Source: Acidobacteriota bacterium
GTDB lineage: Bacteria > Acidobacteriota > Thermoanaerobaculia > Multivoradales > J023
DNA: 64,000 bases
Assembly (NCBI GenBank): GCA_029263355.1
Contig: JAJCXQ010000420.1
Coordinates: 1,540-65,539, forward strand
Reading direction: 5' to 3'
In this document: positions 18,134 to 59,586 of the stretch, in pieces
Numbering within the stretch: position 1 is the stretch's first letter
Layout of the letters: every line of letters begins with the position of its first letter
Translations under genes and position numbers: made by a program
The notes under the pieces: model-generated
Seen by the model: only the letters and a program-made list of their open reading frames with translations
Told to the model about the DNA's origin: nothing
Databases searched by the model: none

Positions 18134-21100
18134 ATGCCAGGCGACCGATGCCGAGCACTTCGAGCGGCTGGCGAAGCCAGCGTTCTCCAAAACATCGTTG
18201 AGGCGCGAACTGTGACAGGTGTCTACCCCTCCGAAGCTTCGCTTTGGCAGTTGTTCGCTGACCAGGCAGAGACGCGACCCGACGCAGTGGCGGTCGAGTA
18301 TGGCGCCGAGCTACTCGACTACGGCGAGCTCGCCCATCGAGCGCGCCGAATAGCCGCCGCACTGCAAACAGCCGGCGTCGAGCGCGGCGACCGTATCGGC
18401 CTCTACCTCGAGCGTTCGCCGGCACTGATCGAGTCGATGCTCGGCATCCTCGCTGCCGGTGGCGCCTATGTCCCGCTCGACCTCGACTATCCCGCCGAGC
18501 GCATCGCCTTCATGATTGAAGACGCCGACGTTTCGGTGGTGGTCACGGCCGCAAGCGAGCTCCCCGGCGGCATCGAAGCCACCGTTCTTGCCCTGTCTCA
18601 GGTTCCGGCAATCGCGGCGGCACCTTCTGAGCTGCCGAGCATCGGTGGCGCAGATCTTGGGTGCGTTATCTACACTTCCGGTTCTACTGGGCGCCCCAAG
18701 GGCGTCAGCGTACCGCAACGAGCCGTCAGCAGGCTGGTGCTAGGCACCGATTACCTCCAGATCGTACCCGGCGACCGCGTCGGTCAAGTCTCGAACGCCT
18801 CCTTTGATGCGGCGACCTTCGAAATCTGGAGCGCCCTGCTCAATGGTGGCCGACTCGTCGGCCTCGAGCGCCAGCTGAGCCTCGACGCGGACCAACTCGC
18901 CACCGAGCTTCGCAGCCGGCGCGTCGACAGCCTGCTCCACACCACCGCCCCGTTCAACCACATCGTTCACCAGAACCCGACGACCTACAGCAGTTTGCGC
19001 GATCTGATGATCGGCGCCGAAGCCGCCGTGCCTCGAGTAGTACGCCGCGTCCTCGACACCGCTTCACCCCAGCGTCTGCTGAATCTCTATGGTCCCACTG
19101 AAGCCACCACTCTCGCCACTTGGCACCCGGTGACCGAGGTCCCCGACGACGCCACAACAATACCCATCGGCCGCCCGATTGCTAATACCGCCGCCTACAT
19201 TGTCGACGAGCACCTCAAACCGGTACCGGGCGGCGTCGCAGGCGAGCTGCTGCTGGGCGGCGACGGTCTTGCCCACGGCTACTTCGCTAAGCCGGCGCTG
19301 AGTGCCGAGCGTTTCGTACCCAATCCCTTCGGCGACGGCGAGCGCCTCTATCGCACCGGCGATCGCGTGCGCAGCCGCGATGACGACAACATCGAGTTCC
19401 TCGGCCGCGTCGACAACCAGGTCAAGCTCCGCGGCTTCCGCATCGAACTCGGAGAGATCGAGGCCACCCTCGCTCAGCATCCCGAGGTCGATTCCGCGAC
19501 CGTACTCTTGCGCGAAGACGAGCCCGGAGACAAGCACCTCGTGGCGTACATCATCGGTCGTCCGGGATCGTCTCCTGAGGACGTTCTGCTGCGAACTTTC
19601 CTCGAGGACCGCCTGCCCAACTTCATGCTGCCGAGCGCCTATGTCTTCCTCGACGCGCTGCCTCTAACCCCCAACGGCAAGGTTGACCGGAACGCTCTAC
19701 CTGTTCCACCTAAGGTGCGCTCGACGACGAGCGAAGAGGCCGCGCTGGCAACTCCTCTCGAGCGGCAACTCGCAGAAATCGTCAGCGAGCTCTTGGGCCT
19801 CGAAGAGGTCGGGATTCACGAGAATCTGTTTACGCTGGGGGCACATTCCCTGCTCGCGGCTCGCCTGATCACCCGGCTGCGGCGCGAGCTGAACCAAGAG
19901 CTGTCAGTGACCGAGCTCTTTGCTCACCCCACCGTCGCCGAACTCGCCGAATCAATCGAAGGGAAAGCTGGCCAGCCACGAGCCGAGTCTCTGAACCTCG
20001 TTCAGGTGGATCGCTCGGCAGGCCTGCCGCTGTCATTCCCCCAAGAGCGAATATGGTTCCTAGAGCAGCTCGCACCGGGGAACATCGCCTACAACTTTCA
20101 GGCGCAGATCGAGCTCGACGGGCCACTCGACCCCCATCTTTGTCAGCGCAGCCTGAGCGAGATCGTGCGACGGCACGAAATCTTTCGCACCCGATTCGCG
20201 GCGGTCAACGGACAGCCGGTCCAAGTGGTCACTCCTCCCTTCTCAGTCGAACTGCCCGTGATCGACCTCGGCGCCATACCCAGAGAGGAAGCCGAGCGTC
20301 GCATCGAACGGGCTGTTGCGATCGATGTGCGCCGCCCCTTCGACATCCTGCAGCTACCCCTCATCCGCTGGCGTCTCTTCCGGCTCGCCGACGAGCGCTG
20401 GGTGCTTTTCCAAATGGAGCACCACTTCGTACACGACGGCTGGAGCTTCTCGGTGTACCTTCGAGAGTTCAAGGAGATTTATCAGGCCTTCGCCGCAGGC
20501 CGACCTTCGCCACTCCCCGAGTTGCGCATCCAGTTCGGCGACTATGTGGCCTGGCACCGCCGACGGATGCAAGGCGAGGTGCTAGAGGAATGTCAAAATT
20601 ACTGGCTGCGGCGCCTCCAGGGTAGCCCTCAAACCCTCGAGCTCCCGACGGACCACCCTCGTCCGCCGGTGCTCCGGTACCGGGGTGGAATGGTACAGGT
20701 CGAGCTGCCTCTGGACCTCGCTCGTCGGGCGCGCGAGCGCAGTCGCGCTTTGGGCGTCACGTTGTTCAACACGATGAAGGCAGCGTTCGACGTCCTCCTA
20801 TATCGGTACACCGGGCAGACCGATCTGCTGGTCGGAACCGGCGCCGCCAACCGCCGCTGGCCCGAGACCGAAGGGCTACTCGGGATGCTGGTCAACAGTC
20901 TGATCCTGCGCTCAGATCTGGCTGGAAATCCGAGTTTCGAGCAGCTGGCCAAAGTTTCCCGAGAGGCTTTTCGTCGCGACTGGGTCTACGAGGATGTACG
21001 TCTCGATCTGCTGGTTGAGAAGCTAGCTCCGGAGCGGGACCTTTCCCGCAACCCGCTTTTTCAGGTGACGTTCAGTTTTCACGACTCGCCCGAGCCAGAC

Positions 21101-24100
21101 CTCGAGTTCGCAGGCCTACGGGGCGTGCCACGGATGCTGCACAATGGCTCCGCCAAAGCCGATTTCAACGTCGTCGTCATTCCTCGCGCCGAGCAGCGCG
21201 TGGGACGCGAGCCCCGGCCGGAACAAGAGTGGATCCGGCTCCATTGGGAGTACAGCACCGACCTGTTCGAGCGCTCTACGGTCGAGCGCATCGCGAGCCA
21301 TTACCTCAACCTCCTCGCAGATGCAGTTCAGCACCCCGAGAAAGAAATCAGCAATCTGACGCTGCTCTCCGCAGAGGAGCGCAGAGAGGTTGTGGTCGAC
21401 TGGAACCAAACCGCGCAACCCTACCCCGCCGAGGCGTCACTGTGGCGGCTGTTTGCGGACCAGGCCGCGGCACGGACCGACGCTGTGGCGGTCGAGTATG
21501 ACGCTGAGCAACTCAGCTACGGCAAACTAGCCCACCGAGCTCGCCGACTGGCCGCGACGCTGAAAGCGGCCGGCGTCGAGCGCGGTGACTGCGTTGGCCT
21601 CTATCTCGAGCGATCAGCTCCGCTGATCGAAGCGATCCTCGGTATCCTGGCTGCTGACGCGGCCTACGTGCCGCTCGACCCCGACTATCCCGAAGAGCGC
21701 TTGGGCTTCATGATTGGTGACACTGGCCTGTCGGTGGTCGTGACCGACGCTGACGAGCTGCCTGCGACCTTTGGCGCCACGGCGCTCAACCTCTCGCAGC
21801 TGTCAGCAGCGGAGCTCACGCACCCACCCGTCAGCGACGGCTCTGATCTCGCATACGTCATCTATACCTCGGGGTCGACCGGCCGCCCCAAAGGCGTTGC
21901 GGTACCCCAACACGCCGTCGCCCGATTGGTGCTCGGCAGCGACTACCTTCAGCTAGCAACCAGCGACCGGGTCGCTCAGGCCTCGACCTTCTCCTTCGAC
22001 GCCGCTACATTCGAAATCTGGAGCGCCCTGCTCAACGGCGGCCGCTTGGTTGGCCTCGAGCGCCAGAAGACCCTTGACGCCGAGAGCCTCGACAGCGAGC
22101 TCCGAGGCCGACGGATCGACAGTCTCTTTACTACCACAGCGCTGTTCAATCAGATCGTCCAACAGGACCCAACCGCTTACGCCAGCCTACGCGATCTGTT
22201 GTTCGGTGGCGAGGCCGTCGACACCCGAGCCGTGCGGCGCGTCGCCCTAGCCGCGCCGCCCAAGCGGCTACTCCACGTCTACGGGCCGACTGAAGTCACG
22301 ACGTTTGCCACTTGGACTTCCGTCACTGAGATCTCCGACGGCGCCATCACCGTGCCAATCGGTCGACCGATCGCCAATACCACCGCCTACGTCGTCGACG
22401 AACGCCTCCGACCGCTACCCGTAGGTGTCCCTGGCGAGCTGCTGCTTGGTGCTGATGGGCTCGCCCGCGGCTATTTCGCCCGCCCTGCCCTCAGCGCCGA
22501 GCGTTTCGTACCTAACCCTTTCGGCGACGGAGAACGCCTCTACCGCACTGGCGACCGCGTACGCACCCGCCACAACGGGGCGATCGAGTTTCTCGGCCGC
22601 GTCGACCACCAAGTCAAGCTCCGCGGCTTCCGTATCGAGCTCGGCGAAATCGAAGCCAATCTGTCGCAACATCCCGAGCTCTCTGCCGCCGCCGTCCTCT
22701 TGCGCGAAGACCGGCCTGGCGACAAGCGCCTGGTGGCCTATGTGGCCACTAGCACCGACGCCGACGACTTGCCGTTGCAACTACGGACGTTCCTGAATGA
22801 GCGCTTGCCCTCCTTCATGATGCCGCATGTTTTTGTAGCTCTCGATACGCTGCCTCTAACCCCTGGCGGCAAGGTCGACCGCAGCAGCTTGCCACTGCCG
22901 GAAGCCTTTGCAGGCGAGGAGGACGGCGGCGAGCATTACGTGGCGCCCAGGACACCGACCGAGGAGGTCTTGGCGGCAATCTGGGAGGGTCTCCTGGGAA
23001 GCAGCCGGGTCGGCCTGCACGACGACTTCTTCGATCTGGGCGGCCACTCTCTGCTTGCGATGCAGGTTATCTCCCGAGCGCGGCAGGCCTTTGATGTCGA
23101 GCTGCCACTGGAGGTTCTGTTCGAATCCCCAACCGTCGCTCGGCTGGCGGCCCGGGTCAAGGCGACGCTGAATACCAAAGCGGACACACTACCGGCGTTG
23201 CAGCCGCAGCCAGCGAACACCGAGCCCGTCCTCTCCTTCGCACAGGTTCGACTCTGGTTCCTCGATCGGCTGGAGGGCCCGACCTCGCGCTACAACGTGC
23301 CGGTCGGCATCCGCCTGCGAGGCGCCCTCCGGACAGCGGCCCTAACAGACAGCTTGAACACTGTTGTCGATCGTCACGAGCCCTTGCGCGCATACTTTCC
23401 GGAAGTAGGAGGGCACCCACGCCTGACGATTGTCGAGCAGCTTCGATTGAGACTGTCCTCGATTGATCTCCGAGGCTTGTCGCCGGCGGTGGCTGAGATC
23501 GAGCGCGAGCAACTGCTACTTGACGCCTTCACGAGGTCCTTCGACCTCGAGCGTGGCCCTCTGGTGCGCGCTTACCTGCTGCGGCTTGCCGATGACGACC
23601 ATGTGCTCTTCCTGAACATGCATCACATCGTCACCGATGGTTGGTCGATAGGCGTGCTCGTGCGAGAAGTGGCCGCCCTCTACGCGGCGAAAATTGACGG
23701 CCGCCCTTCACCGTTGGCGCCGCTACCGATTCGCTACGCTGACTTTGCCGCCTGGCAACGGCACTGGTTCGAAGGCGACTTTCTCGATCAGCACCTCGGA
23801 TTCTGGCGCCAGCAACTAGCCGGCTCGCCACCGCTCTTGGAGGTGCCCACGGACCGACCGCGCCGCGAGGACAGCACCGCTCCGGGGGCTTGGGAGACGG
23901 TTGTCTACCCAGTTGCGAGAACCGCCGAACTCAACCATCTCGCCATAGCCGAGGACAGCACTCAGTTCATGACACTCCTGGCTGGCTTCCAGGCACTCCT
24001 CAGTCGCTATTCACGTCAGCAGGACCTGACGGTCGGCACGCCAGTCTCGGGTCGCAATCGACTAGAAGTCGAAAACCTGATCGGCTTCTTTGTCAATCTC

Positions 24101-27100
24101 CTCGTGCTACGTACCGATTTGACGGGGGATCCAAACTTTCGCCAGCTGCTGCGGCGGGTGCGACGCACCACGGTCACCGCCTTCGCCCACCAGGACGTGC
24201 CCTTCGAGCAGGTGGTCGAAGCTCTAAAACCGCCGCGCTCGCTGGCCCGGACCCCTCTATTCCAGGCGATGTTCGTACTCCAAGAGCCGGCCCTCTCCGA
24301 GCTCCGGATGCAGGGTCTCGAAGTCGAGCCTGTGGTGGTGATTCCAGTCGAGGCCAAATACGACCTCAACCTAGCGGTGACACCTCGCCGTGAGGGACTT
24401 GTTGCCGCCATGGAGTACAACACCGATCTCTTCGATCGGGTCACCATTCATCGTTTCCTCGGCCATCTCGGCGCCCTCTTCGAGGCGGTCGTCGAGAATC
24501 CCGAAACCCGCCTATCGAGGATTCCCCTGCTGACCCCGGCTGAGCGCTCCGAGCTCGCGGCTAACATGAACGTAGCTCAGCCATTGGCTGACGGAGCGAG
24601 GCCTGATGCCGTTGCCGCTTTCGAGGCACAAGTCCAGCGTAGCCCGACGGCTCCGGCCTTGATGGCGAGGGACCGTAGCCTGGCTTTCGAGGACGTCGAC
24701 TGTTCGGCCAATCGGCTGGCCCGCTTCCTCCTCGACAATGGGATCGGTCCCGAGCAAACGGTGGGCCTCGCCGGCGAACGGACACCCGAGCTGGCGATCG
24801 CCCTGCTCGCTATCTTCAAAGCCGGCGCCGTCGCGTTACCTCTCGACTCCCGGCTGCCCGGCGAGCGCTTCGACTTCATCGTTGCCGATTCCGGTGTCGC
24901 GGCAATCCTCGGTTCGGCACCGCAGATGTCCGAGCGCGACGACAACACCGACTCGATCGTATTGCTTCCGTTCCCGTCAAAGGAGGATCTCGCCCGCTAC
25001 AGCAGCGAGAGCCTCGAGCTCGTCCGCCAGCCCGAACAGCTCGCCTACATCATCTACACCTCCGGTTCGACCGGGGCGCCAAAGGGCGTCGGTGTCTCCC
25101 ACGGCGCCCTCGGAAGGCAACTCGCCTTCGGCCCCCGCTACTACCGCTTCTCACCACAAGACCGTCTGCTGCACACCGCTTCCTTCAGCTTTGACGTCGC
25201 CTTCGAGGATCTACTAGCACCGCTGACCGTCGGCGCCGCAGTCATCTTCTCCGACCCCGATCTCCCCGCTCCGGCGCAACTCCTGGCCGACATCCGGCAC
25301 CGCGGGGTCACGGCGGTTGATCTGACACCTGCGTATTGGGCACAGATTCTCGACGAAGTAGAGAAGCACGACACAACGGGGCTCGAGGAGCTGACGACGG
25401 TGATCGTCGGGGGCGAAGCCCTGCCCCCGAGTGCTGTCGAGCGCTGGTGTCGACTTGCACCGCCCACGCAGCGTCTGTTGAATGCCTACGGTCCGACCGA
25501 GGCCGTGATCACCACCACGATCTACGAGGTCGATCGACGAAGGGCCGACATCGGATGGCCGCGGACACCCATTGGTCAGGTATTCGGCGACCGGCTCCTG
25601 GTCGTCACCGATCCTGGCGGCGAGCCGACGCCCGTCGGCGTGCCCGGGGAGCTCGCTATCGGCGGCCAGTTCCTCGCACGCGGCTACCACGCACGGCCTC
25701 GGGAGACCGCCAACAACTTTCGCCCTGACACCTTCTCGCACACCGCTGGCACCAGGCTTTATCGCACCGGCGATCTGGTACGCACCCGCGGCGACGGCGA
25801 TCTCGAGTTCCTCGGGCGGATCGATCACCAGATCAAGCTACGTGGCTTTCGCATCGAGCTCGGCGAGATCGAGGCGGTCCTTTGCCTGCATCGCGAAGTC
25901 AACGAGTGCGCCATCTTGCTGCGCGAAGACACACCCGGCAACCCGCGTCTAGTCGCCTACCTCATTGTCGCCCGAGGGCAACAGCCGGCCGACGATCTGC
26001 GCGCCTTCCTAGCGGCCCAGCTGCCGGACTATATGGTGCCCTCGGTCTTCGTCGGCCTACCCTCCCTGCCACTAACGGCTAACGGCAAGATCGACCGTCA
26101 GGCGCTGCCGTTGCCAGAAGACGTCACAAGCCAGACAACCGAACGTATCCCCAAGCCGAGCACCTCTCCATTTGGAGAGCTGGTAGCAGCGATCTTCAGC
26201 GACGTGCTCTCAGCCGGCGAAGTCCGTCTCGACGCTGATTTCTTCGACCTCGGTGGGCACTCTCTGTTGGCTACCCAGGTCATCTCTCGAGTGAAGCGAG
26301 CTTTGGGTGTCGGCCTGCCCTTACGCGCACTCTTCGAGAACCCGACACCAGAGGCGCTCGGCCAAAAGATCGCCGACGCCCGGTCCGACGGCCGATCCGA
26401 CGGACATGCGCGCCGCGAGCCGCCACTACTGATCTCCGTCGGCCGTCAACGCCCGACAGTCCTTTCTTTTGCCCAACAGCGTCTCTGGTTTCTAGAGCAG
26501 CTTCAAGGCGAGCCGGGGCTCTACAATTTCCCGGTTGTCCTCGAGCTCGACGGCGCCCTCGACGCCGAGGCTCTAGCCGCGAGCCTTCATGCCATCATTC
26601 GCCGCCACGAGGCCCTGCGCACCACCTTTCCAGCGACCGACGGCAAGCCGACACAGCGTATCCTCGAGCGGATACAACTGTCACTCGGTCCGATCGAGGA
26701 CGCCGGGAACGCAACAGAGGAACGCCTGACAGCTGAGGCCAGCCGCCCCTTCGACCTCGCGACCGGGCCACTGATCCGTAGCCGACTGTTCCGGATCGGC
26801 CCCGACCGCCACCTCCTGTTGCTAACGCTGCACCACATCATCTGCGATGGTTGGTCGCTAGCGGTCCTGAACCGTGAGCTGATGACGCTTTACGATGCTT
26901 TCTGCTCGGGTCGACCTAACCCTCTGGAGGAGCTGCCGGCACAGTATGCCGACTTCGCCGCCTGGCAACGTCGCTGGTTGAGCGGTGAGGTGCTCGACGG
27001 TCAGCTCGGCTACTGGAGCCAACGTCTGGCGGCGATGCCTCCCCTACTCGAGATGCCCACCGATCGGCCGCGCCCGGCCGTGCGCACCTTTCGCGGCGCC

Positions 27101-37489: not shown

Positions 37490-37650
37490 TCGAGAATCGA
37501 CAACTTCACCTACCACAGCGAGATCTCATCGCCGCCGGGTTGAAGTCACCGGCATTCCACGATCGCCTCGGCCCCGACCGGCCCCTCGATCCGGGCAAGA
37601 CAGCTGCGCCCCGAGAGTCCATCGGAAACCGAGGAGCCCGAAGCTCATGA
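37486..37650 (+). CDS. 54-codon ORF nested between NRPS genes 1 and 2 (hypothetical; possibly just a coupling spacer)
   Basis: MIENRQLHLPQRDLIAAGLKSPAFHDRLGPDRPLDPGKTAAPRESIGNRGARSS. Its ATG overlaps the NRPS1 stop (CAATGA, 37484-37489) and its TGA overlaps the NRPS2 ATG (TCATGA, 37645-37650). It is below the ORF-track size cut-off and has no recognisable domain. Confidence 0.35.
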   Translation: MIENRQLHLPQRDLIAAGLKSPAFHDRLGPDRPLDPGKTAAPRESIGNRGARSS

Positions 37651-50100: not shown

Positions 50101-53100
50101 CGCCGAGATCTGGGCCGATGTGCTCGGCTGCTCACAAGTCGGTCGTAGCGAAGACTTTTTCGACCTTGGTGGGCACTCCCTGCTCGCCATCCAGCTCATT
50201 TCCCGCGCCCGGCGTGCCTTTGGCATCGATCTGCCCCTCTCAGCCTTGTTCGAAAACTCCACGGTCGAGCGATTGGCGACCGTCGTCCAGCGAGCGATCG
50301 CCACCGGCCCCGAGGCGCCGCCGATCGAACGGATCACCCGGGATGCTCCCCTTCCATTGTCGTTCGGACAACAGCGGCTGTGGTTTCTCCACCAGCTCTT
50401 GCCCATGACCGACCAGTACAACGTACCTGCGAACCTCCGCCTCACGGGTCGGCTGGTAGCTCCGGTTCTGTCCGCCTGCCTAGATGAAATCGTGCGTCGC
50501 CATGAGGTAATGCGCACTCGGTTTGTCGAAGCGGACGGTGTGCCGGTGCAGATCATCGACGAGCCGCGAGGTCTGCCGCTCCCGACCATCGACCTATCCG
50601 GCTTGCCGGAGGCGGAGCGCAGCTCGACCCTCGCACGGTTGCAGCGCAACGAATCGCTGCAAGCCTTCGACCTCGTGGCCGGGCCGGTAGTCCGCGCCCT
50701 ACTCGTTCGTTTGCAGAAGAAAGACCACGCGCTGCTGCTCAGCATGCACCACGCGGTCGCGGACCTGTGGTCGATGGCAGTGCTGATGGGAGAGCTGGCC
50801 AAACTATACACAGCTTTCGTCGCAGGACTCCCCTCACCCCTCGAGGAACTGCCGGTTCAATACGCCGACTACGCGGTTTGGCAGCGACGCCAGATGGAAG
50901 GGGAAGCCTGGCAAGAGCAGATCCGCTACTGGCGCAAGCGCCTAGAGAGAACACCGCCGGCACTGGAGCTGCCGGCCGACCGGCCGCGGCCCGCGGTACA
51001 GAGCTTCCGGGGAGCACTCGAGTCGATCCGCTGGCCTGGTGACCGGCGTGACGCCGCCCGCCGCCTGAGCCGCTCGCAGGACGCGACCCTCTACATGACC
51101 CTGCTGGCCTGTTTCCAGATCCTACTTGCACGTTACAGCGGAACGCGGGACGTCTGTGTCGGTTCGCCGATTCTCAATCGCACTCGACCTGAAATCGAGC
51201 CGCTGATCGGTTTCTTTGTCAACACCGTGGTGCTGCGTACCGACCTTTCCAACGCACCGCGGTTCCGGGAGGTGTTAGCGCAGGTCCGCCGTCTGGCGCT
51301 CGAAGCCTACGCCAACCCGGACGTCCCGTTCGAGCAGATCGTCGAGGAAATTCAGCCGGAGCGGACACTGACTTTTACGCCGCTCTTTCAGGTGATGTTC
51401 GTGCTCCACAACGCCGGTGCTGGGCGGATCACTCTGCCTGGGCTCGAAGCCACTCCTCTCCCCAACGCAACGGAAACCGCGAAGTTCGATCTGACGTTGA
51501 TCGTGCAAGAAGAGACGGAGGCCGGCTTTGTCGCAACCGTCGAGTACAACACGGATCTGTTCGACCGGACCACGATAGTGCGTATGTTGGGCCATCTGGA
51601 GAGGTTGCTGATGAGTGCAGCCGCCGAACCCAACAGGCGAGTGAGTGCCCTCCCTGCCCTAGCTCTGAGCGAGTGCCATCAACTCTTGACCGAATGGTCC
51701 GGGCCCGCCGCCGATGGGCTGTCGGCCGATCTCCACGCGGACGAGGTCGGCATAGACCGGCTCTTCGCTCACCAGGCGACAGTCAGCCCGGACCGCATCG
51801 CACTGGTGTCGGCCGGCGACGCCTGGACCTACGGCGATCTCGCCGCGCGTTCGCACGGCCTGGCTCAGCTCCTAGAGGAGCTGGCACGATCCACATCCAC
51901 CAACTCTCGTGAAGTGCTCGTCGGCATGATCGCCGAGCAGGGGCCCGACATCGTCGTCGGGATCCTCGGTATCCTTCGCTCGCCCTGCGCACTGGTGCCG
52001 GTCTCCCCCGCCTACCCCGAGGAGAGGATCCGGTTTATTGTCGACGAGTGCGGTATCGAAGTCCTCGTCACTCAGAGCCACCATCTCGAGAAGCTGCTCA
52101 ACCTGGCCAGCTCCACCCCGACGCTACGCCACGTGGTCTGCCTCGACGCCGAACCGGAGGCTTCGTTGGCGGCGGCGTCCCTCGCTGTCTACGGACCCGC
52201 TGCCTGGCGGTATCGTGACAGTGAGGGTGGTGCAGCTGGCGCGACGGCTAAGCGGCTGGCCTACGTGATCTACACCTCGGGCTCCCCCGGCCGCCCCAAG
52301 GGGGTACCCATCTCCCACGCCAACTTAATCCCGTTGCTGCTCTGGGGCCGCGACTGCTTCGGGATCGACGAGCACACCCGTGTGGCATCGAGCCTTTCCT
52401 GCTGGTTCGACTTCGGCCTCTTCGAAATCTTGAGCACCTTGCTCTTCGGCGGCCAGCTCCACCTGCTGCGATCGCAGGAATCCGGTGATCCCGCCCTCTA
52501 TGCTCCTTGGATCGCCGAGCGACGGCTGAATACGCTGCACGGCACACCATCGTTCGTGCGCGAGATCACTGCCGCGGCATCGCAGCCGCTGGCCGAGCTA
52601 GAGATCCTGCACATGGGCGGCGAGGCGCTGGCCCGCGCAGATGTCGACCGGTTATTCGAGGCGGTGGGAGAACGGTGCCTGCTCTACAACGGCTACGGGC
52701 CCACCGAGGCCAGCGTCAACAGCGCGATTTTCAACATCGGCAGCCTCGCCGAACGCCACGACAGCGCCGATGCCAACACGCCGATCGGCGGCGCCTCGAC
52801 CGGCAAACGCCTCTACGTTCTGGACCGATGGCAGAGCCCGACACCGGTCGGGGTGGCCGGCGAACTTCACATCGGTGGTGGCGGGCTGTCACGGGGGTAC
52901 TGGCGGCGACCAAGCCTGACCGCCGAACGATTCTGGCCCGATCCCAACGGTTCCGCCCCAGGCGCCCGCCTCTATCGCACTGGTGACCGGGTGCGCTGGC
53001 GTGCCAGCAGCAACATCGAGTTTCTGGGGCGCTTCGACCACCAGATCAAGCTGCGCGGGTTCCGCATCGAGCTGGGAGAGATTGAGGCAGCGCTGATCGA

Positions 53101-55084
53101 ACACCCCGAGATCAACGCGAGCACGGCCCTTCTGCGCGAGGACCGTCCAGGCGAGCGACGGCTCGTTGCCTATATCGTGGCGCAATTCGAGCCACCGCCA
53201 AGCACCGAAGAACTGCGCAGTTTTCTCGCCGAGATCCTGCCATGGTACATGGTGCCTTCAGTGTTCATGAACCTGGCGACGCTGCCGCTGACGCCCACTG
53301 GCAAAGTCGACCGCCGGGCTCTGCCGCCACCGGCGCAGGGGGAAGAAGAGAGCAAATCGTACGAGCCGCCGTCCACACCGACGGAAGAGACCGTGGCTGG
53401 CATCTGGTCGGAGGTTCTAGGCCGGGAGCAGGTCGGAAGGCAGGCGAATTTCTTCGATCTCGGCGGCCATTCTCTGCTGGCGACGCAGGTCATCTCGCGG
53501 GTGCGCCAAGCGTTCGACGTCAACTTACAACTGCGAGCCCTCTTCGAGGCCGTCGACCTCGCCCGCTTTGCTGAACGGATCGACCTGGCCCGCCTGGAGG
53601 AGGTACCGGAGGGTGGCGACGCCATGGTGTCTCCAGCGAGGTTCCAAGCCGAGGTCGAATCGGCCCAACGGCGGCTCGACAGTGATCCGAATATCGAGGA
53701 GATTCTTCCCCTCGCCCCCGGCCCGCGCGCGCTGGTCGCTCAAACCCTGGCCTCGGACCGGCCGAGCACTTGGATGATGCAGCTCACCTATGGATTGGCC
53801 GCTCCGCTGGAGGAACGACTTCTCGGAGCTGCCTGGGGAGCAATTCTCCAACGTTATGCCCTGCTCCGCTCAGTCGTCGCTTGGCGCGGGCTGGAGCAGC
53901 CCGTGCAGGTGATTCGCCGCGATCTCGAGATGCCGGTCCGCTGGCTCGACTGGACAGCTCTGAACGAAGCCGAGCAAAACGACGAGCTGCAACGACTTCT
54001 CCACCGCGATCGCGAAGCTGGCCTCGACTTTAGTGCCGGCCCTTTGCTGCGCCTGGTCGCGATTCGCCGGCGGCGAGATGCCCACGATCTGGTTTTGAGC
54101 TTTCACCACCTGCTCCTCGACGGCTGGAGCAACACGATGTTACTGCACGACCTGCTCGCCACCTATGAAGCGCTGCGCACCGGTCGTGGGCCGGCGACCC
54201 TACCGGCGATCGTGCCCTACCAGACCTACCTCGATTGGCTCGAGCGCAAAAACCTCGCTCCTGCGGAGGCCTACTGGCGGCAGACCCTTGGCGGCTTCAC
54301 CGCGCCGCCCCCACTGCCCATCGATCCGATGGTGACGCCGGGCGTTGAGGGCCAGGAAGAGATCCAGGTGTTCCTCGACAAGGCTCTGAGCCGCCGGCTG
54401 GAGATATTCGCACAGCGCCACCGCTTGACGATCAATACCCTCGCCCAGGGAGTCTGGAGCCTGGTCCTCTCTTCGCTGGCAGACTGCGAGGAGTTGGTCC
54501 TCGGGGTCGTGACGTGGGGACGCCCGCCAGATCTCGAACGTGCAGAGTCGATCTTCGGTTGTCTCATGACCACGCTTCCTTTCCGCACTCGATTCATACT
54601 CGACCAACAGATCGTTCCATGGCTCCAAGAGCTGCAGATCGATCTTGCGGCGCTGCGCGAGTACGAGCATTGCAGCGCCGAGCAAATCAAGCAATGGGCG
54701 GGGTGGCCAACAGATGCACCGCTCTACGATTTTCAGTTCGTTTGCAACAATTTTCCACCCCCGGAGGCGGATCCGACAAACCTCGGCTTCGAGATTACGT
54801 CGTCCGAGGTCTTCGAAGAGAATCGTTACCTGCTTGATCTCGAGGTCATCCCGGCAACGCGCTGGCGGCTGGCACTGCTGTTTCAGCGCAGTCACTTCAA
54901 CCGCCGCGCGGCCCGCAGCCTGCTCGGTCGTTACGAGGCCGTGCTCGAACAGCTGGTTGCCGACCCCGAGCTGCTCCTCGCGAGCCTCCGGTCCCCGATC
55001 CCGTCCCTCGACCAACCCGAGAAGATCGCGGCTACAACCGAGATGACCCGTTCCGGCACACCAGCCGTGGAGCTCGAGCGGTGA
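47162..55084 (+). CDS. non-ribosomal peptide synthetase 3: C(DCL)-A-T-C-A-T-C(terminal)
   Basis: The GTG start overlaps the NRPS2 stop (GTGA). DCL C domain (YPLSPMQQGMLFH, HHMLLDGWS ~47590). A3 cores near 49000 and 52275 (the latter reads YTSGSPGRPKG). Carrier serines near 50175 and 53470. LCL C domain with HHAVADLWS (~50750). Terminal C-like domain with HHLLLDGWS (~54105). No GxSxG thioesterase or reductase domain. Confidence 0.95.
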   Translation: MRDHIADFYPLSPMQQGMLFHALESPESTVHHEFLRCELEGKLAEDTLEYALQAVVDRHAVLRSAFLWEGLREPVQVVHRDVPLPLQRLDLSGITASEQERRLTVLAQEERESHFELSQPPLLRMTLVKLGLHRSLLLWSFHHMLLDGWSTAQVLQEFFELYEIGCRNTEPQLPPAVPYRNYIAWLKRQSMTRAEAFWRQRLAGFSRPTPLPLALPRARRAEGVEECRLSIDSATSDQLKSLASRLKLTPNTVVQAAWARLLALYSGELDILFGAVVSGRPPELSGIESLVGLMINTLPVRIAVPKQTAIETWMRELQTLRAEESEFEFTPLYRIQEWAGVAGSPLFETLLGYQNYPFDSVAAQPSSGLRLVAVDAIEQTNVPLTLTIGLGQEMGLRALLDPRRFDLHAVDRVLRSLATLLRNIVANPDAPVQSLGFLSAEERQQVLTGCNLTPQPYPRQAGLAELFADQVARHPEAVALEFGDGLLSYAELDRQARCLATNLGASGVSHGSLVGLCLERSTALAVGILGILQAGGAYVPLDPDHPSERLDFMAEDAGLAAVVTEEAHAAALPHWGLPTLVLTTGTNANLAKEITATPNVVVSGESLAYVIYTSGSTGRPKGVAVPQRAVARLALGTDYVDLRPGNRMAQASTASFDAATFEIWGALLTGGRLVGLERELTLAPAELAAALDRHRIDTLFLTTALFNQVVRLEPAAFARLRELLFGGEAVDPDIVRRVLAEGSPRRLLHVYGPTESTTFATWHEVDCGADTDATIPIGRPLANTTAYVLDSNSEPVPVNVPGELYLGADGLARGYLHRPALTAECFVPHPFADSERLYRTGDRVHRGADGAIEFLGRFDHQIKLRGFRIELGEIEEALRGHPAIGDAVVVLTNSLPVGEQLVAYAVPTSPNALPIAELRNFLGERLPHYMVPQLFVSLPELPLNANGKLDRDALPKPIPAEVYGSVSTSELPATAVEATLAEIWADVLGCSQVGRSEDFFDLGGHSLLAIQLISRARRAFGIDLPLSALFENSTVERLATVVQRAIATGPEAPPIERITRDAPLPLSFGQQRLWFLHQLLPMTDQYNVPANLRLTGRLVAPVLSACLDEIVRRHEVMRTRFVEADGVPVQIIDEPRGLPLPTIDLSGLPEAERSSTLARLQRNESLQAFDLVAGPVVRALLVRLQKKDHALLLSMHHAVADLWSMAVLMGELAKLYTAFVAGLPSPLEELPVQYADYAVWQRRQMEGEAWQEQIRYWRKRLERTPPALELPADRPRPAVQSFRGALESIRWPGDRRDAARRLSRSQDATLYMTLLACFQILLARYSGTRDVCVGSPILNRTRPEIEPLIGFFVNTVVLRTDLSNAPRFREVLAQVRRLALEAYANPDVPFEQIVEEIQPERTLTFTPLFQVMFVLHNAGAGRITLPGLEATPLPNATETAKFDLTLIVQEETEAGFVATVEYNTDLFDRTTIVRMLGHLERLLMSAAAEPNRRVSALPALALSECHQLLTEWSGPAADGLSADLHADEVGIDRLFAHQATVSPDRIALVSAGDAWTYGDLAARSHGLAQLLEELARSTSTNSREVLVGMIAEQGPDIVVGILGILRSPCALVPVSPAYPEERIRFIVDECGIEVLVTQSHHLEKLLNLASSTPTLRHVVCLDAEPEASLAAASLAVYGPAAWRYRDSEGGAAGATAKRLAYVIYTSGSPGRPKGVPISHANLIPLLLWGRDCFGIDEHTRVASSLSCWFDFGLFEILSTLLFGGQLHLLRSQESGDPALYAPWIAERRLNTLHGTPSFVREITAAASQPLAELEILHMGGEALARADVDRLFEAVGERCLLYNGYGPTEASVNSAIFNIGSLAERHDSADANTPIGGASTGKRLYVLDRWQSPTPVGVAGELHIGGGGLSRGYWRRPSLTAERFWPDPNGSAPGARLYRTGDRVRWRASSNIEFLGRFDHQIKLRGFRIELGEIEAALIEHPEINASTALLREDRPGERRLVAYIVAQFEPPPSTEELRSFLAEILPWYMVPSVFMNLATLPLTPTGKVDRRALPPPAQGEEESKSYEPPSTPTEETVAGIWSEVLGREQVGRQANFFDLGGHSLLATQVISRVRQAFDVNLQLRALFEAVDLARFAERIDLARLEEVPEGGDAMVSPARFQAEVESAQRRLDSDPNIEEILPLAPGPRALVAQTLASDRPSTWMMQLTYGLAAPLEERLLGAAWGAILQRYALLRSVVAWRGLEQPVQVIRRDLEMPVRWLDWTALNEAEQNDELQRLLHRDREAGLDFSAGPLLRLVAIRRRRDAHDLVLSFHHLLLDGWSNTMLLHDLLATYEALRTGRGPATLPAIVPYQTYLDWLERKNLAPAEAYWRQTLGGFTAPPPLPIDPMVTPGVEGQEEIQVFLDKALSRRLEIFAQRHRLTINTLAQGVWSLVLSSLADCEELVLGVVTWGRPPDLERAESIFGCLMTTLPFRTRFILDQQIVPWLQELQIDLAALREYEHCSAEQIKQWAGWPTDAPLYDFQFVCNNFPPPEADPTNLGFEITSSEVFEENRYLLDLEVIPATRWRLALLFQRSHFNRRAARSLLGRYEAVLEQLVADPELLLASLRSPIPSLDQPEKIAATTEMTRSGTPAVELER
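53698..55081 (+). other. terminal condensation-like domain (putative release/cyclisation or amine-capping catalyst)
   Basis: About 460 aa after the last carrier domain with an intact HHLLLDGWS. It is colinear with the DCL C domain at the start of the same protein (..VAWRGLEQPVQVIRRDLEMP.. versus ..FLWEGLREPVQVVHRDVPLP..), but the donor-side LSPMQ motif is degenerate (LAPGPRA). Confidence 0.75.
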
Positions 55085-55620
55085 GCGAACTCACCACAGC
55101 AGGGAGCTTCGAAGTCGACAGAGGCGACCTAGGGTGGGGCATTTTCGCCCGCCGGGAGTTCCACAGGGGCGATTACATCTTCACCTTCACCGGCCCCCTG
55201 ATCGACTTCGACGGCACCGTGGCCAAGGGCGAGCGCGAGAGCGACCCTCTGCAGATCGGCGAAAACCTCTACATCGACCTCGAGGAACCGGGCAGGTCCA
55301 TCAACCACTCCTGCGCCCCCAACAGCGGCGTCATCGAGAATCGAATTCTGATCGCGATCCGGAGTATTCAGCCGGGCGAGGAAATCAGCCTAGACTACTC
55401 CACGACCATGGGGGACGGTCACTGGACGATGATCTGTGCCTGCGGCAATGCTTCGTGCCGCGGAGTGATCCGCGACTTCGAGTATCTCGACCAAGAGTTG
55501 CGTCAGAGCTATCTCGAGCTGAACGTTGTACAGGGGTACTTGCGCCACCGCCTCGGCGAGCAGCTGCAGGCGGACCGTCACGGCAGAGGCGAGATGGCCT
55601 CGAAGGATTTTCGACGATGA
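55081..55620 (+). CDS. SET-domain (lysine) N-methyltransferase with post-SET Cys cluster
   Basis: The GTG start overlaps the NRPS3 stop (GTGA), with GGAG 10 nt upstream. SET motifs GWGIFARREF, SINHSCAPN, EEISLDY; post-SET CACGNASCRG. Confidence 0.85.
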   Translation: MSELTTAGSFEVDRGDLGWGIFARREFHRGDYIFTFTGPLIDFDGTVAKGERESDPLQIGENLYIDLEEPGRSINHSCAPNSGVIENRILIAIRSIQPGEEISLDYSTTMGDGHWTMICACGNASCRGVIRDFEYLDQELRQSYLELNVVQGYLRHRLGEQLQADRHGRGEMASKDFRR

Positions 55621-56429
55621 GCTGGCGCGAGATCGAACGGGTGGAGCTGCCATCGCCGCGCGAGTTTCAGCGGAAGTACCTTGCCGGGTCGCGACCGGCC
55701 GTGTTCACCAATGCCATGGACCATTGGCCGGCCCGAGAGATGTGGACTCCTGAGTACTTCAAGTCGAGGTACGGGGACATCAAACTTCTGGTTCAGAATC
55801 ACGAAGCGCTGACCGGAGAGGCGAGTGGACCGATCGAGGAGCAGTACGCGGAACAGCGCTTGGGTGACTACATCGACGACCTGCTGACGCCGGAGCAGAA
55901 GACAGGCTACATCGTGCAGTGCCCGCTGCTCGACGCGGTGCCCGAGCTTCGCCATGATGTCGACTTTCCGCCCTTCTTTTCGCCGCTCTCCCGACCGAAG
56001 CTGCAACTGTGGATCGGCCCGGCAAACACCAACTCCAAGCTCCACTACGACCAGGACGAGAATCTCTTCGCTCAGATCTATGGCAGGAAGCGGATTATCC
56101 TAGCGCCGCCGGAAGCGACGAAGTACTGCTACCCGACCAACGTCACCTGGGGGGAAGGCTACAGCCCGATCCACCCTCACGACCCTGATCTGACTCACTA
56201 CCCGCTGTTCGCGAAGGTTCGACGTTACCAGACCGTTCTCGGACCGGGCGAGATCCTCTACATCCCTCTCCGCTGGTGGCACGATGTCACTGCGCTCGAA
56301 CCCGCTATCTCGGTCAACTTATGGTGGTGGCCGCCGAAACTGATGATCCGCAACGTCGCCTACCGGGAATGGGACCGCCTCAGCAAGCGCTTGACAGGCA
56401 AGCTAGGTGTCTCCTACGGCCCCCGCTAA
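55617..56429 (+). CDS. JmjC/cupin-8 Fe(II)/2-oxoglutarate oxygenase, FIH-like (JmjC-only hydroxylase type)
   Basis: ATGA overlap with the SET gene. LHYDQDENLFAQIYGRKRIILAPP (HxD facial triad, compare FIH [24 protein letters not shown]), ...GPGEILYIPLRWWHDV...SVNLWW (distal His). The ORF-track extension to 55134 was rejected. Confidence 0.85.
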   Translation: MSWREIERVELPSPREFQRKYLAGSRPAVFTNAMDHWPAREMWTPEYFKSRYGDIKLLVQNHEALTGEASGPIEEQYAEQRLGDYIDDLLTPEQKTGYIVQCPLLDAVPELRHDVDFPPFFSPLSRPKLQLWIGPANTNSKLHYDQDENLFAQIYGRKRIILAPPEATKYCYPTNVTWGEGYSPIHPHDPDLTHYPLFAKVRRYQTVLGPGEILYIPLRWWHDVTALEPAISVNLWWWPPKLMIRNVAYREWDRLSKRLTGKLGVSYGPR

Positions 56430-56462
56430 ACTACGACAAGCAAGCTTGGAGAACTCGAGTCT

Positions 56463-57422
56463 ATGAGCGACACCATCCTTCACGTCGAGACCATCGGCAA
56501 GAGCTTCGAAACCGTCCGCGCTCTTGACGACCTCAGCTTCCAGATCGAAGCCGGCGAGATCTTTGCCCTCCTCGGGCCAAACGGTGCCGGCAAGTCGACA
56601 ACCGTACGCATCCTGATGGGGATACTACGGCCAGACTCCGGCCAGATTCGATATCAGATCGGTTCCTACCTCGGACCGGAACCGCCGTCTAGGACTCTCG
56701 GCTATCTGCCGGAGGATCGTGGCCTCTACCCGGACGTACCGATCCTCAAGACCCTTGTCTACATGGGGATCCTACGCGGGATGCCACGCGCTGAGGCTAC
56801 TGAGGCTACCCGCCACTGGCTGGGGCGCCTAGGCCTCCTCGAGCGCGAAGGGGAAAAGCTGGACGCCCTATCGAAAGGTAACCAGCAGAGAGTGCAGTTC
56901 ATCGGCTCGATCCTCCACAGTCCTAGCTTCGCGGTCCTCGACGAACCGTTCTCCGGCCTCGATCCGATCAACCAGGAACAGATCCTCGACATCTTGCGCG
57001 ATCTCCGCAAGGCGGGTACGACGATCTTACTCAGCGCTCACCACCTCGATCTCGTCGAGCGCATCGCCGACCGGGTTCTGCTGCTCGACCAGGGACGAGA
57101 AGTGCTCGCGGGCACCATCGACGAGGTCAAGAAAGTAACCGCGGCGCGGCGGCTTGTTTTCGAGATCGCAGGTACCCCCGACACAGAAATCATCGAGTCC
57201 TTACCAGGCGTCGAGGCGGTCGAGATTCGCGATTCGGGCGAGATAGCTACTACGCTTGGAAGGACTGTCGAGCTGAATGCGTTCTTGAATGCGTTGACCT
57301 CACGCTTCGAGGTCACTTCGATCCGATCGACGGAGATGGACTTGCACGACATTTTTGTCGGCAAGATCTCGGAGCGGCGCGCGGCGGCCGAGAGCGCGCC
57401 AGGCGCTAAGGAGGCAATCTGA
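56463..57422 (+). CDS. ABC transporter ATP-binding protein (ABC-2/DrrA-like)
   Basis: Walker A GPNGAGKST, signature LSKGNQQRV, Walker B LDEPFSGLD. Confidence 0.9.
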   Translation: MSDTILHVETIGKSFETVRALDDLSFQIEAGEIFALLGPNGAGKSTTVRILMGILRPDSGQIRYQIGSYLGPEPPSRTLGYLPEDRGLYPDVPILKTLVYMGILRGMPRAEATEATRHWLGRLGLLEREGEKLDALSKGNQQRVQFIGSILHSPSFAVLDEPFSGLDPINQEQILDILRDLRKAGTTILLSAHHLDLVERIADRVLLLDQGREVLAGTIDEVKKVTAARRLVFEIAGTPDTEIIESLPGVEAVEIRDSGEIATTLGRTVELNAFLNALTSRFEVTSIRSTEMDLHDIFVGKISERRAAAESAPGAKEAI

Positions 57423-58612
57423 TGAGCTCGAGCAGACTTCTCTTTGAGATCGCCCGATGGGAGTTCGGTCGCTGGTTCAAATTCGGCGACCGGCTCCGCT
57501 CGCTGGTTTCCTCCGCCCTCATCGGCCTCGCGGTATGGGGTGGCCTCGCACTTGTCGAACGGTTTAGCCGAACCGAGGTGACGGTAGTCGTCTTCGGCAC
57601 GGAAACACTGCCTCTCGCCGCGCCTGAAGATGCGTTAATCCAACTCGAACCGGCAGCAGGCCGCAGCCTCGATGACTTGCGAAAGGAACTTGCCCAGCAG
57701 GAAATCGATGCTGTACTCAACCTTCAGACGGCCGACGCTGGCCAGCTTCTTGTCACGCGTGAGCCCGGTTACCTCACCGAACTGACAGAAATCCTGTCCC
57801 TGGCGCGACGGCAAGTGAGACTCGACGAGTTGGAGATCAACGAGGAACAATTAGCCACCCTCAACCGCCCCTACGAGCTGAGCGTCGAGTCGGTGGCAAA
57901 AGGCGGACGCAAGACGACGGCTGACAAGATCGCGGCGGGTGTGCTGATCGGCCTGATGACGCTCGGAGTCTTCATCGGTCTGAGCTACCAATTTGTCGTC
58001 ATCACCGGCGAGAAGCGCCTGCGTATTACCGAGCAGATCGTCTCGGCGGTGTCACCTCAGAGCTGGATTGATGGCAAGATCCTCGGGCTATCCGCTCTGT
58101 CGATGGTCAGCCTGTTGACTTATCTTGCCGGTACCTTGATTTTCCTGTTTGTGGCCACACTTTTCGGTAATCCCATCACGATACCTAGCAGCGCCGCCAA
58201 TCCCGGTTTGTGGCTGCTCTTGGGCCTGTTCTCTGCCGGAGGTTTCTTTCTCTGGAACACCCTTTTTGCGGCCTTCGCCGCCACCATTGACGACCCCAAC
58301 ACCTCGGCGCGAGGGTCGCTCATGATGCTGCCATTCTTCCCCCTGGCACTCGCCTTCTTCGTGCTCAAAAGTCCCGACGCGGAGATCATCCGCCTGCTCG
58401 GCCTCTTTCCCTTGACTTCGCCGACGGTGATGGCGGCACGTCTCGTCCTGACCCAGGTCACGTGGTGGGAGATCCTACTCAGCCTTGGTCTACTCGCGGC
58501 CACCATCTTAGTGTTGCGACGAGTCGCCGGTAAAATCTTTGCCCTCTCGATCCTCATGTATGGCAAGGAGCCCTCATGGTCCGAGATGGCCCGCTGCCTT
58601 CGTGAGGCTTGA
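57422..58612 (+). CDS. ABC-2 family transporter permease
   Basis: 1-nt overlap with the ATPase gene (TGATG). N-terminal TM helix, a large loop, then about 5 TM helices. Confidence 0.8.
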   Translation: MSSSRLLFEIARWEFGRWFKFGDRLRSLVSSALIGLAVWGGLALVERFSRTEVTVVVFGTETLPLAAPEDALIQLEPAAGRSLDDLRKELAQQEIDAVLNLQTADAGQLLVTREPGYLTELTEILSLARRQVRLDELEINEEQLATLNRPYELSVESVAKGGRKTTADKIAAGVLIGLMTLGVFIGLSYQFVVITGEKRLRITEQIVSAVSPQSWIDGKILGLSALSMVSLLTYLAGTLIFLFVATLFGNPITIPSSAANPGLWLLLGLFSAGGFFLWNTLFAAFAATIDDPNTSARGSLMMLPFFPLALAFFVLKSPDAEIIRLLGLFPLTSPTVMAARLVLTQVTWWEILLSLGLLAATILVLRRVAGKIFALSILMYGKEPSWSEMARCLREA

Positions 58613-58733: not shown

Positions 58734-59435
58734 ATGAAAAAAGATGTGTTCTTCCATTGGTCTCAGGCCCGTTTCCTCAAAGACACGTTGCGCAACAAAA
58801 ACATCGAGGTCGGCGACAACACGTACTACTCGGGTTTTTACCACGGCGAGCACTTCGATGAGTTGTGTGTGCGTTACTTGCTCGGTGACCCAGAGTCGCT
58901 GAAGATTCTGCGGGCTAACGACACTGAGATCGACCGGCTGATCATTGGAAAATTCTGCTGTTTCGCCAGCGGAGTGGTCATCGTCATGGGCGGCAACCAG
59001 GGCCACAACCCAGAGAACATCACCGTCTACCCTTTTCCAGACAAATTGGCTGAGCTCAAGAAGCTCAAGGGAGACACCGTGATCGGCAACGATGTCTGGC
59101 TGGGAACCGAGGCAATGATTCTGCCAGGGGTGAAGATTGGCGATGGCGCAATCATCGGCGCGCGGGCGCTGGTTTCGAAGGATGTCGAGCCCTATAACGT
59201 CGTCGTCGGCAATCCGGGGCGGGTCATCAAGCAACGATTCTCGGACGACGAAGTCGACAAGCTGCTCAAAATCCGCTGGTGGGACTGGCCCATGAAAGAA
59301 GTCTTCGCTCAGCAGGACATTCTGTGCAGTGGCAACATCGATCTCTTGTGGGAGATACATCTCCGGCGCCCAGCGGCGAAGATGCATCTCCGCCGCCCAG
59401 CGGCGGAGAAAAGACTCGGCTCCCCACCCGCCTGA
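58734..59435 (+). CDS. Vat-family (streptogramin A / xenobiotic) hexapeptide-repeat O-acetyltransferase
   Basis: By-eye alignment to Vat(D): ..IGKFCCFASGVVIVMGGNQGHN...YPFP...GDTVIGNDVWLGTEAMILPGVKIGDGAIIGARALVSKDVEPYNVVVGNPGRVIKQRFSDDEVDKLLKIRWWDWP. The extra C-terminal tail arises from a 27-bp tandem duplication. Confidence 0.85.
   Translation: MKKDVFFHWSQARFLKDTLRNKNIEVGDNTYYSGFYHGEHFDELCVRYLLGDPESLKILRANDTEIDRLIIGKFCCFASGVVIVMGGNQGHNPENITVYPFPDKLAELKKLKGDTVIGNDVWLGTEAMILPGVKIGDGAIIGARALVSKDVEPYNVVVGNPGRVIKQRFSDDEVDKLLKIRWWDWPMKEVFAQQDILCSGNIDLLWEIHLRRPAAKMHLRRPAAEKRLGSPPA
59358..59411 (+). repeat. 27-bp tandem duplication at the 3' end of the vat-like gene
   Basis: catctccggcgcccagcggcgaagatg / catctccgccgcccagcggcggagaaa, encoding HLRRPAAKM / HLRRPAAEK. 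Confidence 0.8.
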
Positions 59436-59586
59436 GACCTAGTGATCCACCTTTCTTCCAACGTCATGAAGAGTCAACATCTAATCAACCCTAACAACCG
59501 TGTCCAGGACACTCCGTCAAGCCTGACGCCACCGATTGTCGAAGCACCCCTTGCTAGCAAGATCGATCTGGAAGGAAGGAGAGCCA

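Follow-up and report, generated by a model that had tools for sequence, protein, structure and literature searches.

Two departures from the continuous adenylation (A) domain have been described in nonribosomal peptide synthetases (NRPSs). In the corallorazine system a single A domain is carried on two neighbouring open reading frames (ORFs), Crz1 and Crz2, and activity, in the one such case demonstrated, requires both of them (PMC11342130); the division of this domain falls at a8/a9, with the core and an N-methyltransferase on one ORF and the small C-terminal subdomain on the other. In the interrupted A domains of families 1 to 7, in-frame methyltransferase domains are found at a2-a3, a6-a7 and a8-a9 only (PMC8341866). 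Here we analyze a stretch of 64,000 nucleotides (the window) from an Acidobacteriota bacterium (contig JAJCXQ010000420.1, positions 1,540 to 65,539 of the forward strand), which holds an NRPS gene cluster of 11 modules whose seventh A domain (A7) is divided elsewhere, between motifs a1 and a2. About 49 N-terminal residues lie on the upstream polypeptide, and relatives of the locus hold a whole gene of the family DUF3326 in the gap. The arrangement resembles the interrupted A domains in that foreign coding sequence sits within an A domain at a defined loop, but what intervenes is a gene in its own right, from start to stop codon, and the A domain is made of two polypeptides. We consider it probable, from the sequence comparisons presented below, that the locus encodes a linear and probably functional NRPS of three subunits that makes an orphan undecapeptide, and that its split A7 is inherited. 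In the literature that we searched, neither an a1|a2 split nor an NRPS with DUF3326 is described.

Results

An assembly line of 11 modules on three subunits

The three NRPS genes lie on the forward strand. Subunit 1 (ORF1, 18134..37489, 6451 aa) comprises modules 1-6, each in the order A, thiolation (T), condensation (C), followed by the N-terminal fragment of A7. Its A domains are found at 18263-19681 (A1), 21509-22873 (A2), 24620-26089 (A3), 27824-29254 (A4), 31025-32464 (A5) and 34202-35620 (A6), and C6 (35975-37291) directly precedes the A7 fragment. Subunit 2 (ORF2, 37647..47165, 3172 aa from the ATG at 37647) presents a truncated A7 (37647-39059), then T-C-A8-T-C-A9(Ala)-T and an epimerization (E) domain (45738-47006), and ends in a COM-like tail. 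The longest possible start of ORF2 is 37392; the start at ATG 37647 is also the site of the public gene call. Subunit 3 (ORF3, 47162..55084, 2640 aa) opens with a C domain of the DCL type (47180-48496) and continues with A10-T-C-A11-T, with A11 at 51785-53305, up to a terminal C domain (53684-54982).

Pfam recognizes only Condensation, AMP-binding, AMP-binding_C and PP-binding in the three giant ORFs. Mapping by phmmer, seeded with one internal copy of each domain type, resolves ORF1 into (A-T-C)x6 and ~49 aa from the start of A7, ORF2 into the remaining A7-T-C-A-T-C-A-T and a weakly C-like domain (the E domain), and ORF3 into a divergent C, A-T-C-A-T and a second divergent C. Pfam and phmmer together count 12 domains of the C superfamily next to 11 A and 11 T, arranged colinearly as in a modular type I NRPS. 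A preliminary description of this DNA had read the same domain order from three co-directional giant ORFs, including the A-T start that lacks a starter C domain, and the domain map bears it out on both counts.

The ~12,260 NRPS codons are free of stops and frameshifts. The phosphopantetheine serine is present in each of the 11 carrier domains; T1 reads GAHSL and not GGHSL (19835-19852), and T9 has the GGDSI form usual ahead of E domains. Motifs a3, a7, a8 and a10 are kept throughout the A domains with the one exception of a3 in A11. Internal identity of the A domains is 68% for A7/A11 and 79% for A8/A10. Stop and start codons overlap as GTGA at ORF2/ORF3 and between ORF3 and a downstream SET-domain gene, as ATGA between the latter and a cupin gene, and as TGATG between two ABC transporter genes; the genes from ORF1 through the ABC-2 permease are translationally coupled as one set. 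The preliminary description had all three giant ORFs joined to each other and to the downstream genes by such overlaps, which holds for ORF2/ORF3 and downstream, but ORF1 and ORF2 are not joined directly, as a 54-codon ORF lies between them.

A7 is divided around a 54-codon ORF

The split of A7 had been listed previously and left without explanation; it is real, and not an error. Alignment to the paralog A11 places the ~49-aa N-terminal fragment of A7 at the 3' end of ORF1 (37340..37486, + strand), with motif a1 (WTYGDV) and the next helix. Past C6, ORF1 runs through GVSLGTLFARQAAADPERVAMVSADDSWTYGDVDSQSTGLAQLLKELVQ, the A-domain N-terminus with motif a1, and stops at the TGA at 37487-37489. 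Homology to A11 picks up 163 nt later in a different frame, at ATG 37647, as MSTSSGSRESLVGLMADKGPE...LRSGCALVPISP, which holds motif a2. Relative to A11, these 163 nt are an insert. A repeat or miniature inverted-repeat transposable element is ruled out as their nature, since the sequence is unique in the window, and an RNA element was likewise rejected (fold z-score +0.8, no better than shuffles; no Rfam match).

The gap is spanned by a 54-codon ORF (37486..37650, + strand) that begins MIENRQLHLPQRDLIAAGL and overlaps both the ORF1 stop and the ORF2 start as ATGA. An exact-sequence look-up of the 54-aa product found no match, and Smith-Waterman comparison of the ORF with two DUF3326 proteins gave scores no better than shuffles. 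The DUF3326 proteins of the split loci described below begin MI[EDQ]N[RKQ][QE][YF].I.[KR]SE, the closest example being VIENRQFRLSKFDVIGAGS in locus L092. An anchored position-specific scoring matrix built on residues 2-20 of DUF3326 gives the 54-codon ORF 7.2 bits, compared with a maximum of 3.5 in a null set of 3,330 start-codon-anchored, stop-free 20-mers of the window (mean -29.3, sd 7.7; none reaches the observed score). Because the anchored score, the identical position and the ATGA junction agree, we regard the 54-codon ORF as probably a DUF3326 gene that lacks ~380 central codons. No intact DUF3326 (PF11805) is found by Pfam or tblastn in the A7 gap or elsewhere in the window.

The same split recurs around intact DUF3326 genes

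A search with a healed A7 gave best matches of 45-52% identity that cover just 89% of the query. Homologs P0024, P0027, P0028, P0030, P0034, P0037 and P0040, on contigs of up to 2 Mb, begin at the start residue of ORF2, as exemplified by MRQDRLIGLMVEPG...GILKAG and MPNKLVGLLTGHNP...GILKSG. In locus L084, an A-T-C protein ends RSLTYVELDGQARALADFLMGLDS and overlaps as ATGA with the gene of a 443-aa DUF3326 protein (PF11805), and a truncated A-T-C follows 39 nt on. In locus L085, the operon opens with the truncated A-T, the next product is a stand-alone C protein that ends in the a1 fragment, and DUF3326 comes immediately after. The order of the parts is thus permuted in L085 (10001-20287), where the gene after DUF3326 encodes a C-A-T-thioesterase (TE) protein fused to an MFS transporter domain.

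To assess the generality of this arrangement, JGI metagenomes were searched with an alignment of DUF3326, which added 80 loci and brought the total to 82. An A-domain N-fragment abuts the DUF3326 start in 34 of the 82, most of them metagenomic, a truncated A domain begins ~20-200 nt past the DUF3326 stop in 25, and 19 loci have both features. Some 30 upstream ORFs terminate at one structural position, with the consensus ..H.LFE.Q..TP.K.A.V...LT[YF].EL...LA.LI..L, and 14 of these ~30 end in the same ATGA overlap as in the window. The window conforms to this pattern: its upstream C-domain ORF ends after the a1 helix, and ORF2 begins just before a2. Every readable truncated A domain (17/17, from 17 loci) has the specificity code DFFHHGG[V/I]NK, the code of A7 and A11 in the window. 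Unsplit members of the same A-domain clade also occur, namely A11 of the window and P0038.

Judged by these comparisons, the break between ORF1 and ORF2 within A7 is a trait that was inherited in the clade. The a1 fragment appears to be functional because it is conserved in ~30 loci and is always attached to a C domain, even where the order is permuted as in L085. Most likely it fills in the A7 fold in trans and serves to dock subunit 1 on subunit 2. The ancestral order would have been a1 on the upstream C protein, then the DUF3326 gene, then a2 opening the next protein; in the lineage of the window, the DUF3326 gene would have been deleted down to the 54-codon coupling ORF.

DUF3326 itself has no sequence homolog in the PDB. 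An AlphaFold2 model (pLDDT 78.6) has no Foldseek match to the PDB below E 1e-3, and resembles known folds only in a flavodoxin-like subdomain. About 40 of the 82 DUF3326 loci, roughly half, have no NRPS within 6 kb, and in one protein (P0205) DUF3326 is fused to a PhyH domain (phytanoyl-CoA dioxygenase-like, Fe/2-oxoglutarate). None of the SET, cupin and radical-SAM genes discussed below co-occurs with DUF3326 loci within 6 kb on either side.

Specificity codes and predicted backbone

The 11 A domains were aligned by MAFFT to the GrsA-PheA fragment, whose control code DAWTIAAICK was recovered. All 11 Stachelhaus codes are identical to those extracted by hand in the preliminary description, so that neither the re-mapping nor this alignment yields a domain order or code that differs from it. 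DALWLGGTFK (module 5) and DLFNNALTYK (module 9) are taken here to specify Val and Ala, respectively. Module 1 has DAFLMGLTLK, module 4 has DAFTVAAVWK (Phe-like), and modules 7 and 11 share DFFHHGGVNK. A string search of the open literature returned no paper for DFFHHGGVNK, DAFLMGLTLK, DAFTVAAVWK, DALWLGGTFK or DLFNNALTYK. DAFFLGVTFK, shared by modules 2, 6, 8 and 10, is the Ile code, with Val as the minor substrate, of OciB/C in cyanopeptolin biosynthesis and of the aeruginosin/suomilide family (PMC2533009, PMC13122637). The code of module 3, DVEDIGAITK, is one position off DVEDIGAIEK, which directs Arg in ApnA-A1 and whose close variants also admit Lys (PMC5311044).

With Ile four times, one Arg/Lys-like residue and Ala, the codes support the hydrophobic product with one basic residue that had been proposed. 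Synthesis would start on the A1-T1 loading module, leaving the N-terminus free, and the predicted backbone is X1(hydrophobic)-Ile2-Arg/Lys3-Phe-like4-Val5-Ile6-Z7-Ile8-D-Ala9-Ile10-Z11, where Z denotes the substrate of the A-domain clade coded DFFHHGG[V/I]NK.

Epimerization and chain release

Nine C domains (C1-C8 and C11) have the LCL pattern (LSFAQQRLWFL, HHxxxDG). The domain after T9 has the motifs HHLAMDWVSW, EGHGRE and FNYLG and passes TIGR01720 with 123.6 bits (cut-off 74.2); on these grounds it is a true epimerase. The domain that opens ORF3 starts YPLSPMQQGMLFH and holds the DCL signature LSPMQQGMLFH. As an E domain is followed by a DCL-type C domain, D-Ala at position 9 is well supported, in keeping with what had been deduced from this pair.

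The terminal C domain has an intact HHLLLDGWS (54104-54130) and is 32% identical to the DCL domain of ORF3. Its best solved relatives are McyB, PvdL, bacitracin synthase 3 (BacC), TycB and SrfA-C (150-250 bits), compared with ~50 bits for TycC and LgrA. The former are C domains that come after E domains, and this closeness places the terminal C in the DCL clade. Pfam and NCBIfam searches of the sizeable ORFs and six-frame motif scans of the window found no TE, reductase, MbtH or phosphopantetheinyl transferase (PPTase). The lack of a TE, reductase and MbtH-like gene had been noted before and stands, but the absence of a TE does not exclude a release function, since the terminal C has an intact HHxxxDG, a point that had been overlooked. 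Release by a terminal C domain is an established route, and by its motif this one is the likely catalyst: the chain would leave either as an amide with an amine or through an intramolecular attack.

Putative tailoring and export genes downstream of the NRPS

Immediately after ORF3, and GTGA-coupled to it, is a gene for a 179-aa SET-domain methyltransferase (55081..55620, + strand). The protein scores 48.2 bits against Pfam SET (threshold 22.4) and has the motif NHSC (NHSCAPN), the catalytic Tyr in LDYS and the post-SET Cys cluster CACGNASC; its best PDB match is NSD2. The next gene (55617..56429, + strand), ATGA-coupled to it, encodes a 270-aa JmjC/Cupin_8 Fe(II)/2-oxoglutarate oxygenase (Cupin_8, 170 bits, threshold 27.4) with an invariant HxD...H triad (H143-D145...H222). 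Among solved relatives it comes nearest to human JMJD5 (E 2e-37, residues 6-237), an arginyl C-3 hydroxylase (PMC5862942). Given this pair of genes, the product is probably methylated and/or hydroxylated. The preliminary description, which took the cluster to run from 18134 to 58612, had passed over both.

The transporter genes follow on the same strand: a DrrA-like ATPase (56463..57422; ABC_tran and DrrA C-terminal domain) and, adjoining it, an ABC-2 family permease (57422..58612; ABC2_membrane). The ABC-2 pump that had been named is therefore present, and a DrrAB-type pump of this kind would export the product. Beyond it lies a CatB/Vat-like hexapeptide acetyltransferase gene (58734..59435, + strand), whose product scores 216 bits against type B chloramphenicol acetyltransferase, under the NCBIfam cut-off, and then a radical-SAM gene (59536..61515, + strand) that matches TIGR03975 with 519.2 bits (cut-off 281.85). 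The name of this family is 'RiPP maturation radical SAM C-methyltransferase', RiPP standing for a peptide that is made by the ribosome and modified after translation. No plausible RiPP precursor ORF is seen in the 100-220 nt gaps around the gene, where small ORFs were inspected without a profile search.

Among 5.8 billion proteins the cupin has just two close relatives. One is on L007, a contig from a different run with 70% GC, which bears the only related cluster found. It keeps the gene order of the window with identities of 48% (NRPS terminal C), 58% (SET), 57% (cupin), 56% (ABC), 53% (ABC-2) and 63% (radical SAM), and there the radical-SAM gene comes immediately after the ABC-2 gene. Because of this synteny, the radical-SAM gene is the probable last, tailoring gene of the cluster, which thus probably extends beyond 58612, the end given earlier, to 61515; an SDR gene, which lies on the opposite strand, and dinB then mark its limit. 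The acetyltransferase is missing from L007, which makes its membership doubtful, and it may serve in resistance or be an insertion with no relation to the cluster. A search of 185,579 GTDB species representatives with a cupin alignment found relatives of at most 42% identity, none with this tail of genes; at that scope the cluster is the orphan that it had been called.

We propose that the peptide or one of its building blocks would be tailored by the SET enzyme, by the JMJD5-like hydroxylase and, probably, by the radical-SAM C-methyltransferase too, the most obvious target being basic residue 3. In a Kofleriaceae metagenome-assembled genome and metagenomes (L002/L003/L004, ~8205-10891), a 46%-identical cupin adjoins a Lys/Orn N-monooxygenase and a Cupin_2-MetRS-like fusion. 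This gene set is typical of hydrazine (N-N bond) forming pathways. The context suggests that this cupin clade acts on lysine-type small molecules.

Upstream and flanking sequence

About 1.5 kb upstream of the NRPS is a deoxyhypusine-synthase-like gene (15555-16694, + strand), preceded by an arginine decarboxylase gene (13591-15567, - strand). These genes of polyamine or agmatine metabolism could be an amine source for release, or housekeeping genes. Between them and the NRPS promoter region lies a 292-aa ORF (16789-17667, - strand) with no Pfam family and one predicted hydrophobic stretch, and the NRPS itself is preceded by an AT-richer gap of 467 nt. The GC content of the NRPS block (18000-56000) is 0.61-0.67, compared with 0.56-0.60 in the flanks, which is compatible with horizontal acquisition or with an NRPS-specific composition. 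Further upstream, on the - strand (351-10057), is a respiratory block unrelated to the NRPS. It encodes several cytochromes of the c type, a 4Fe-4S protein of 1136 aa, a membrane protein part of which resembles cytochrome bd subunit I, and a multihaem protein like cytochrome c7.

Discussion

Several findings weigh against a functional line with an inherited split, and some of them are just what a decaying cluster would leave, in which the loss of DUF3326 has removed the supply or partner for the Z-specific A domains and the full peptide is no longer made. DUF3326, the constant companion of the split clade, is lost here, being down to 54 codons with no second copy in the window, and in the 17 readable split loci the DFFHHGG[VI]NK domain comes after an intact DUF3326; if this protein makes Z, modules 7 and 11 could be left short of substrate. 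The a3 motif (P-loop) of A11 (52271-52303) reads YTSGSPGRPKG in place of the SG[ST]TG of the other ten A domains, a Thr-to-Pro change that could weaken or abolish adenylation, for which A7, with the same specificity code, might compensate. Likewise, C5 (HHIVADLWS, 33197-33223) and C11 (HHAVADLWS, 50747-50773) have HHxxxDL for HHxxxDG. Other points bear on the reading as such: the assignment of the remnant is based on ~19 residues, and a local HMMER profile of DUF3326 gives the 54-aa ORF -2.1 bits, about the top 2% of shuffles and not significant; trans-complementation by the a1 fragment is deduced from conservation and gene order alone; the codes give approximate substrates only, with X1, residue 4 and Z unassigned; the window has neither a PPTase nor a release hydrolase; and both the amine that would accept the chain and the targets named for the SET, JmjC and radical-SAM enzymes are guesses. 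Decay nonetheless seems unlikely to us, as the ~12,260 codons are clean, the 11 carrier serines, motifs a7, a8 and a10, and a3 in all but A11 are intact, and the ATGA couplings across the remnant have been kept. Moreover, the A-domain clade also occurs unsplit (A11, P0038), and with 64 kb of the genome visible, DUF3326 may sit elsewhere. That A7 is really continuous, its break being an assembly or sequencing artefact, is hardly credible. The contig is metagenomic, and NRPS repeats such as A7/A11 and A8/A10 are prone to mis-assembly; but an insert that is unique is no repeat join, it opens with a stop codon, closes with a start codon and encodes a DUF3326-like N-terminus, and the position of the break recurs in ~30 independent loci and in proteins on contigs of 1-2 Mb.

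The roles given to the tail of the cluster have rivals of their own. The SET and JmjC proteins could be bacterial mimics of eukaryotic chromatin enzymes (effectors) or modifiers of cellular proteins that are mere neighbours of the NRPS: histone methyltransferases and human JMJD5 are the solved proteins nearest to them, and homologs of the cupin are found in non-NRPS contexts. We think this very unlikely, because both genes are translationally coupled to the last NRPS gene, a second organism (L007) has the tail in this order with 48-63% identity, and in pavettamine biosynthesis small JmjC cupins have small-molecule substrates, as is also proposed for laxaphycin. Release could also take place in trans, by a type II TE or a PBP-type cyclase encoded outside the window, with the terminal C being structural or acting elsewhere. 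No acceptor substrate can be named for the terminal C, and it belongs to the DCL clade though module 11 has no E domain; yet its HHLLLDGWS is intact, a homologous C domain also ends the NRPS of L007, and the route as such is established, so that release in trans is in our view rather unlikely. We thus retain a probably functional three-subunit NRPS with an inherited split in A7.

The NRPS itself is an orphan member of a familiar class, and its variant features are the a1|a2 split, the SET/JMJD5-like pair and the TIGR03975 enzyme that comes with no visible precursor. The recurrence of the split with DUF3326, tied to one specificity code, points to a particular building block and to the function of DUF3326, a large family of more than 1,200 proteins. 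It also points to the C-A junction as a natural site for splitting and docking, of the kind sought by NRPS engineers. In the literature searched, no NRPS operon was found to pair a SET methyltransferase with a JMJD5-like oxygenase, and the pair suggests histone-type Lys/Arg chemistry on a small peptide; a radical-SAM family annotated as RiPP-specific has apparently been recruited to a non-ribosomal pathway. As a tentative proposal, which we hold possible and short of probable, the split with its nested DUF3326 may be a mobile building-block cassette, in which DUF3326 would make or present a non-proteinogenic Z and the a1 fragment would dock the subunits. The window would then represent a new family of undecapeptides that contain Z, are methylated by SET, hydroxylated by JmjC and possibly C-methylated, and are released by a terminal C domain of the DCL type.

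In rhabdopeptide/xenortide-type NRPSs there is no TE, and the terminal C domain caps the peptide with an amine. The line in the window is like these, by description, in that it has no TE or reductase and an intact terminal C as its sole release candidate, and unlike them in that this domain groups with DCL domains. For DUF3326, the only pathway that we found with a genetic requirement is pavABC of pavettamine, where the DUF3326 protein PavB is required with PavA for a hydroxylated polyamine, and PavC, a JmjC-like cupin hydroxylase of 264 aa, acts on a lysine-derived amine (bioRxiv 10.64898/2026.06.12.731819). The likeness of PavC to the window cupin is one of description; pavABC has no NRPS, whereas the DUF3326 of the window is a putative remnant. 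Cupin_8 oxygenases within an NRPS cluster are represented by LxaF-G of laxaphycin/scytocyclamide, for which beta-hydroxylation of Leu and Asn is proposed (PMC7524897). The laxaphycin cluster has no SET partner, and the window cupin is closest instead to the arginyl hydroxylase JMJD5. Human JMJD5 is a eukaryotic enzyme that modifies proteins, but it shares the HxD...H triad with the cupin of this peptide cluster.

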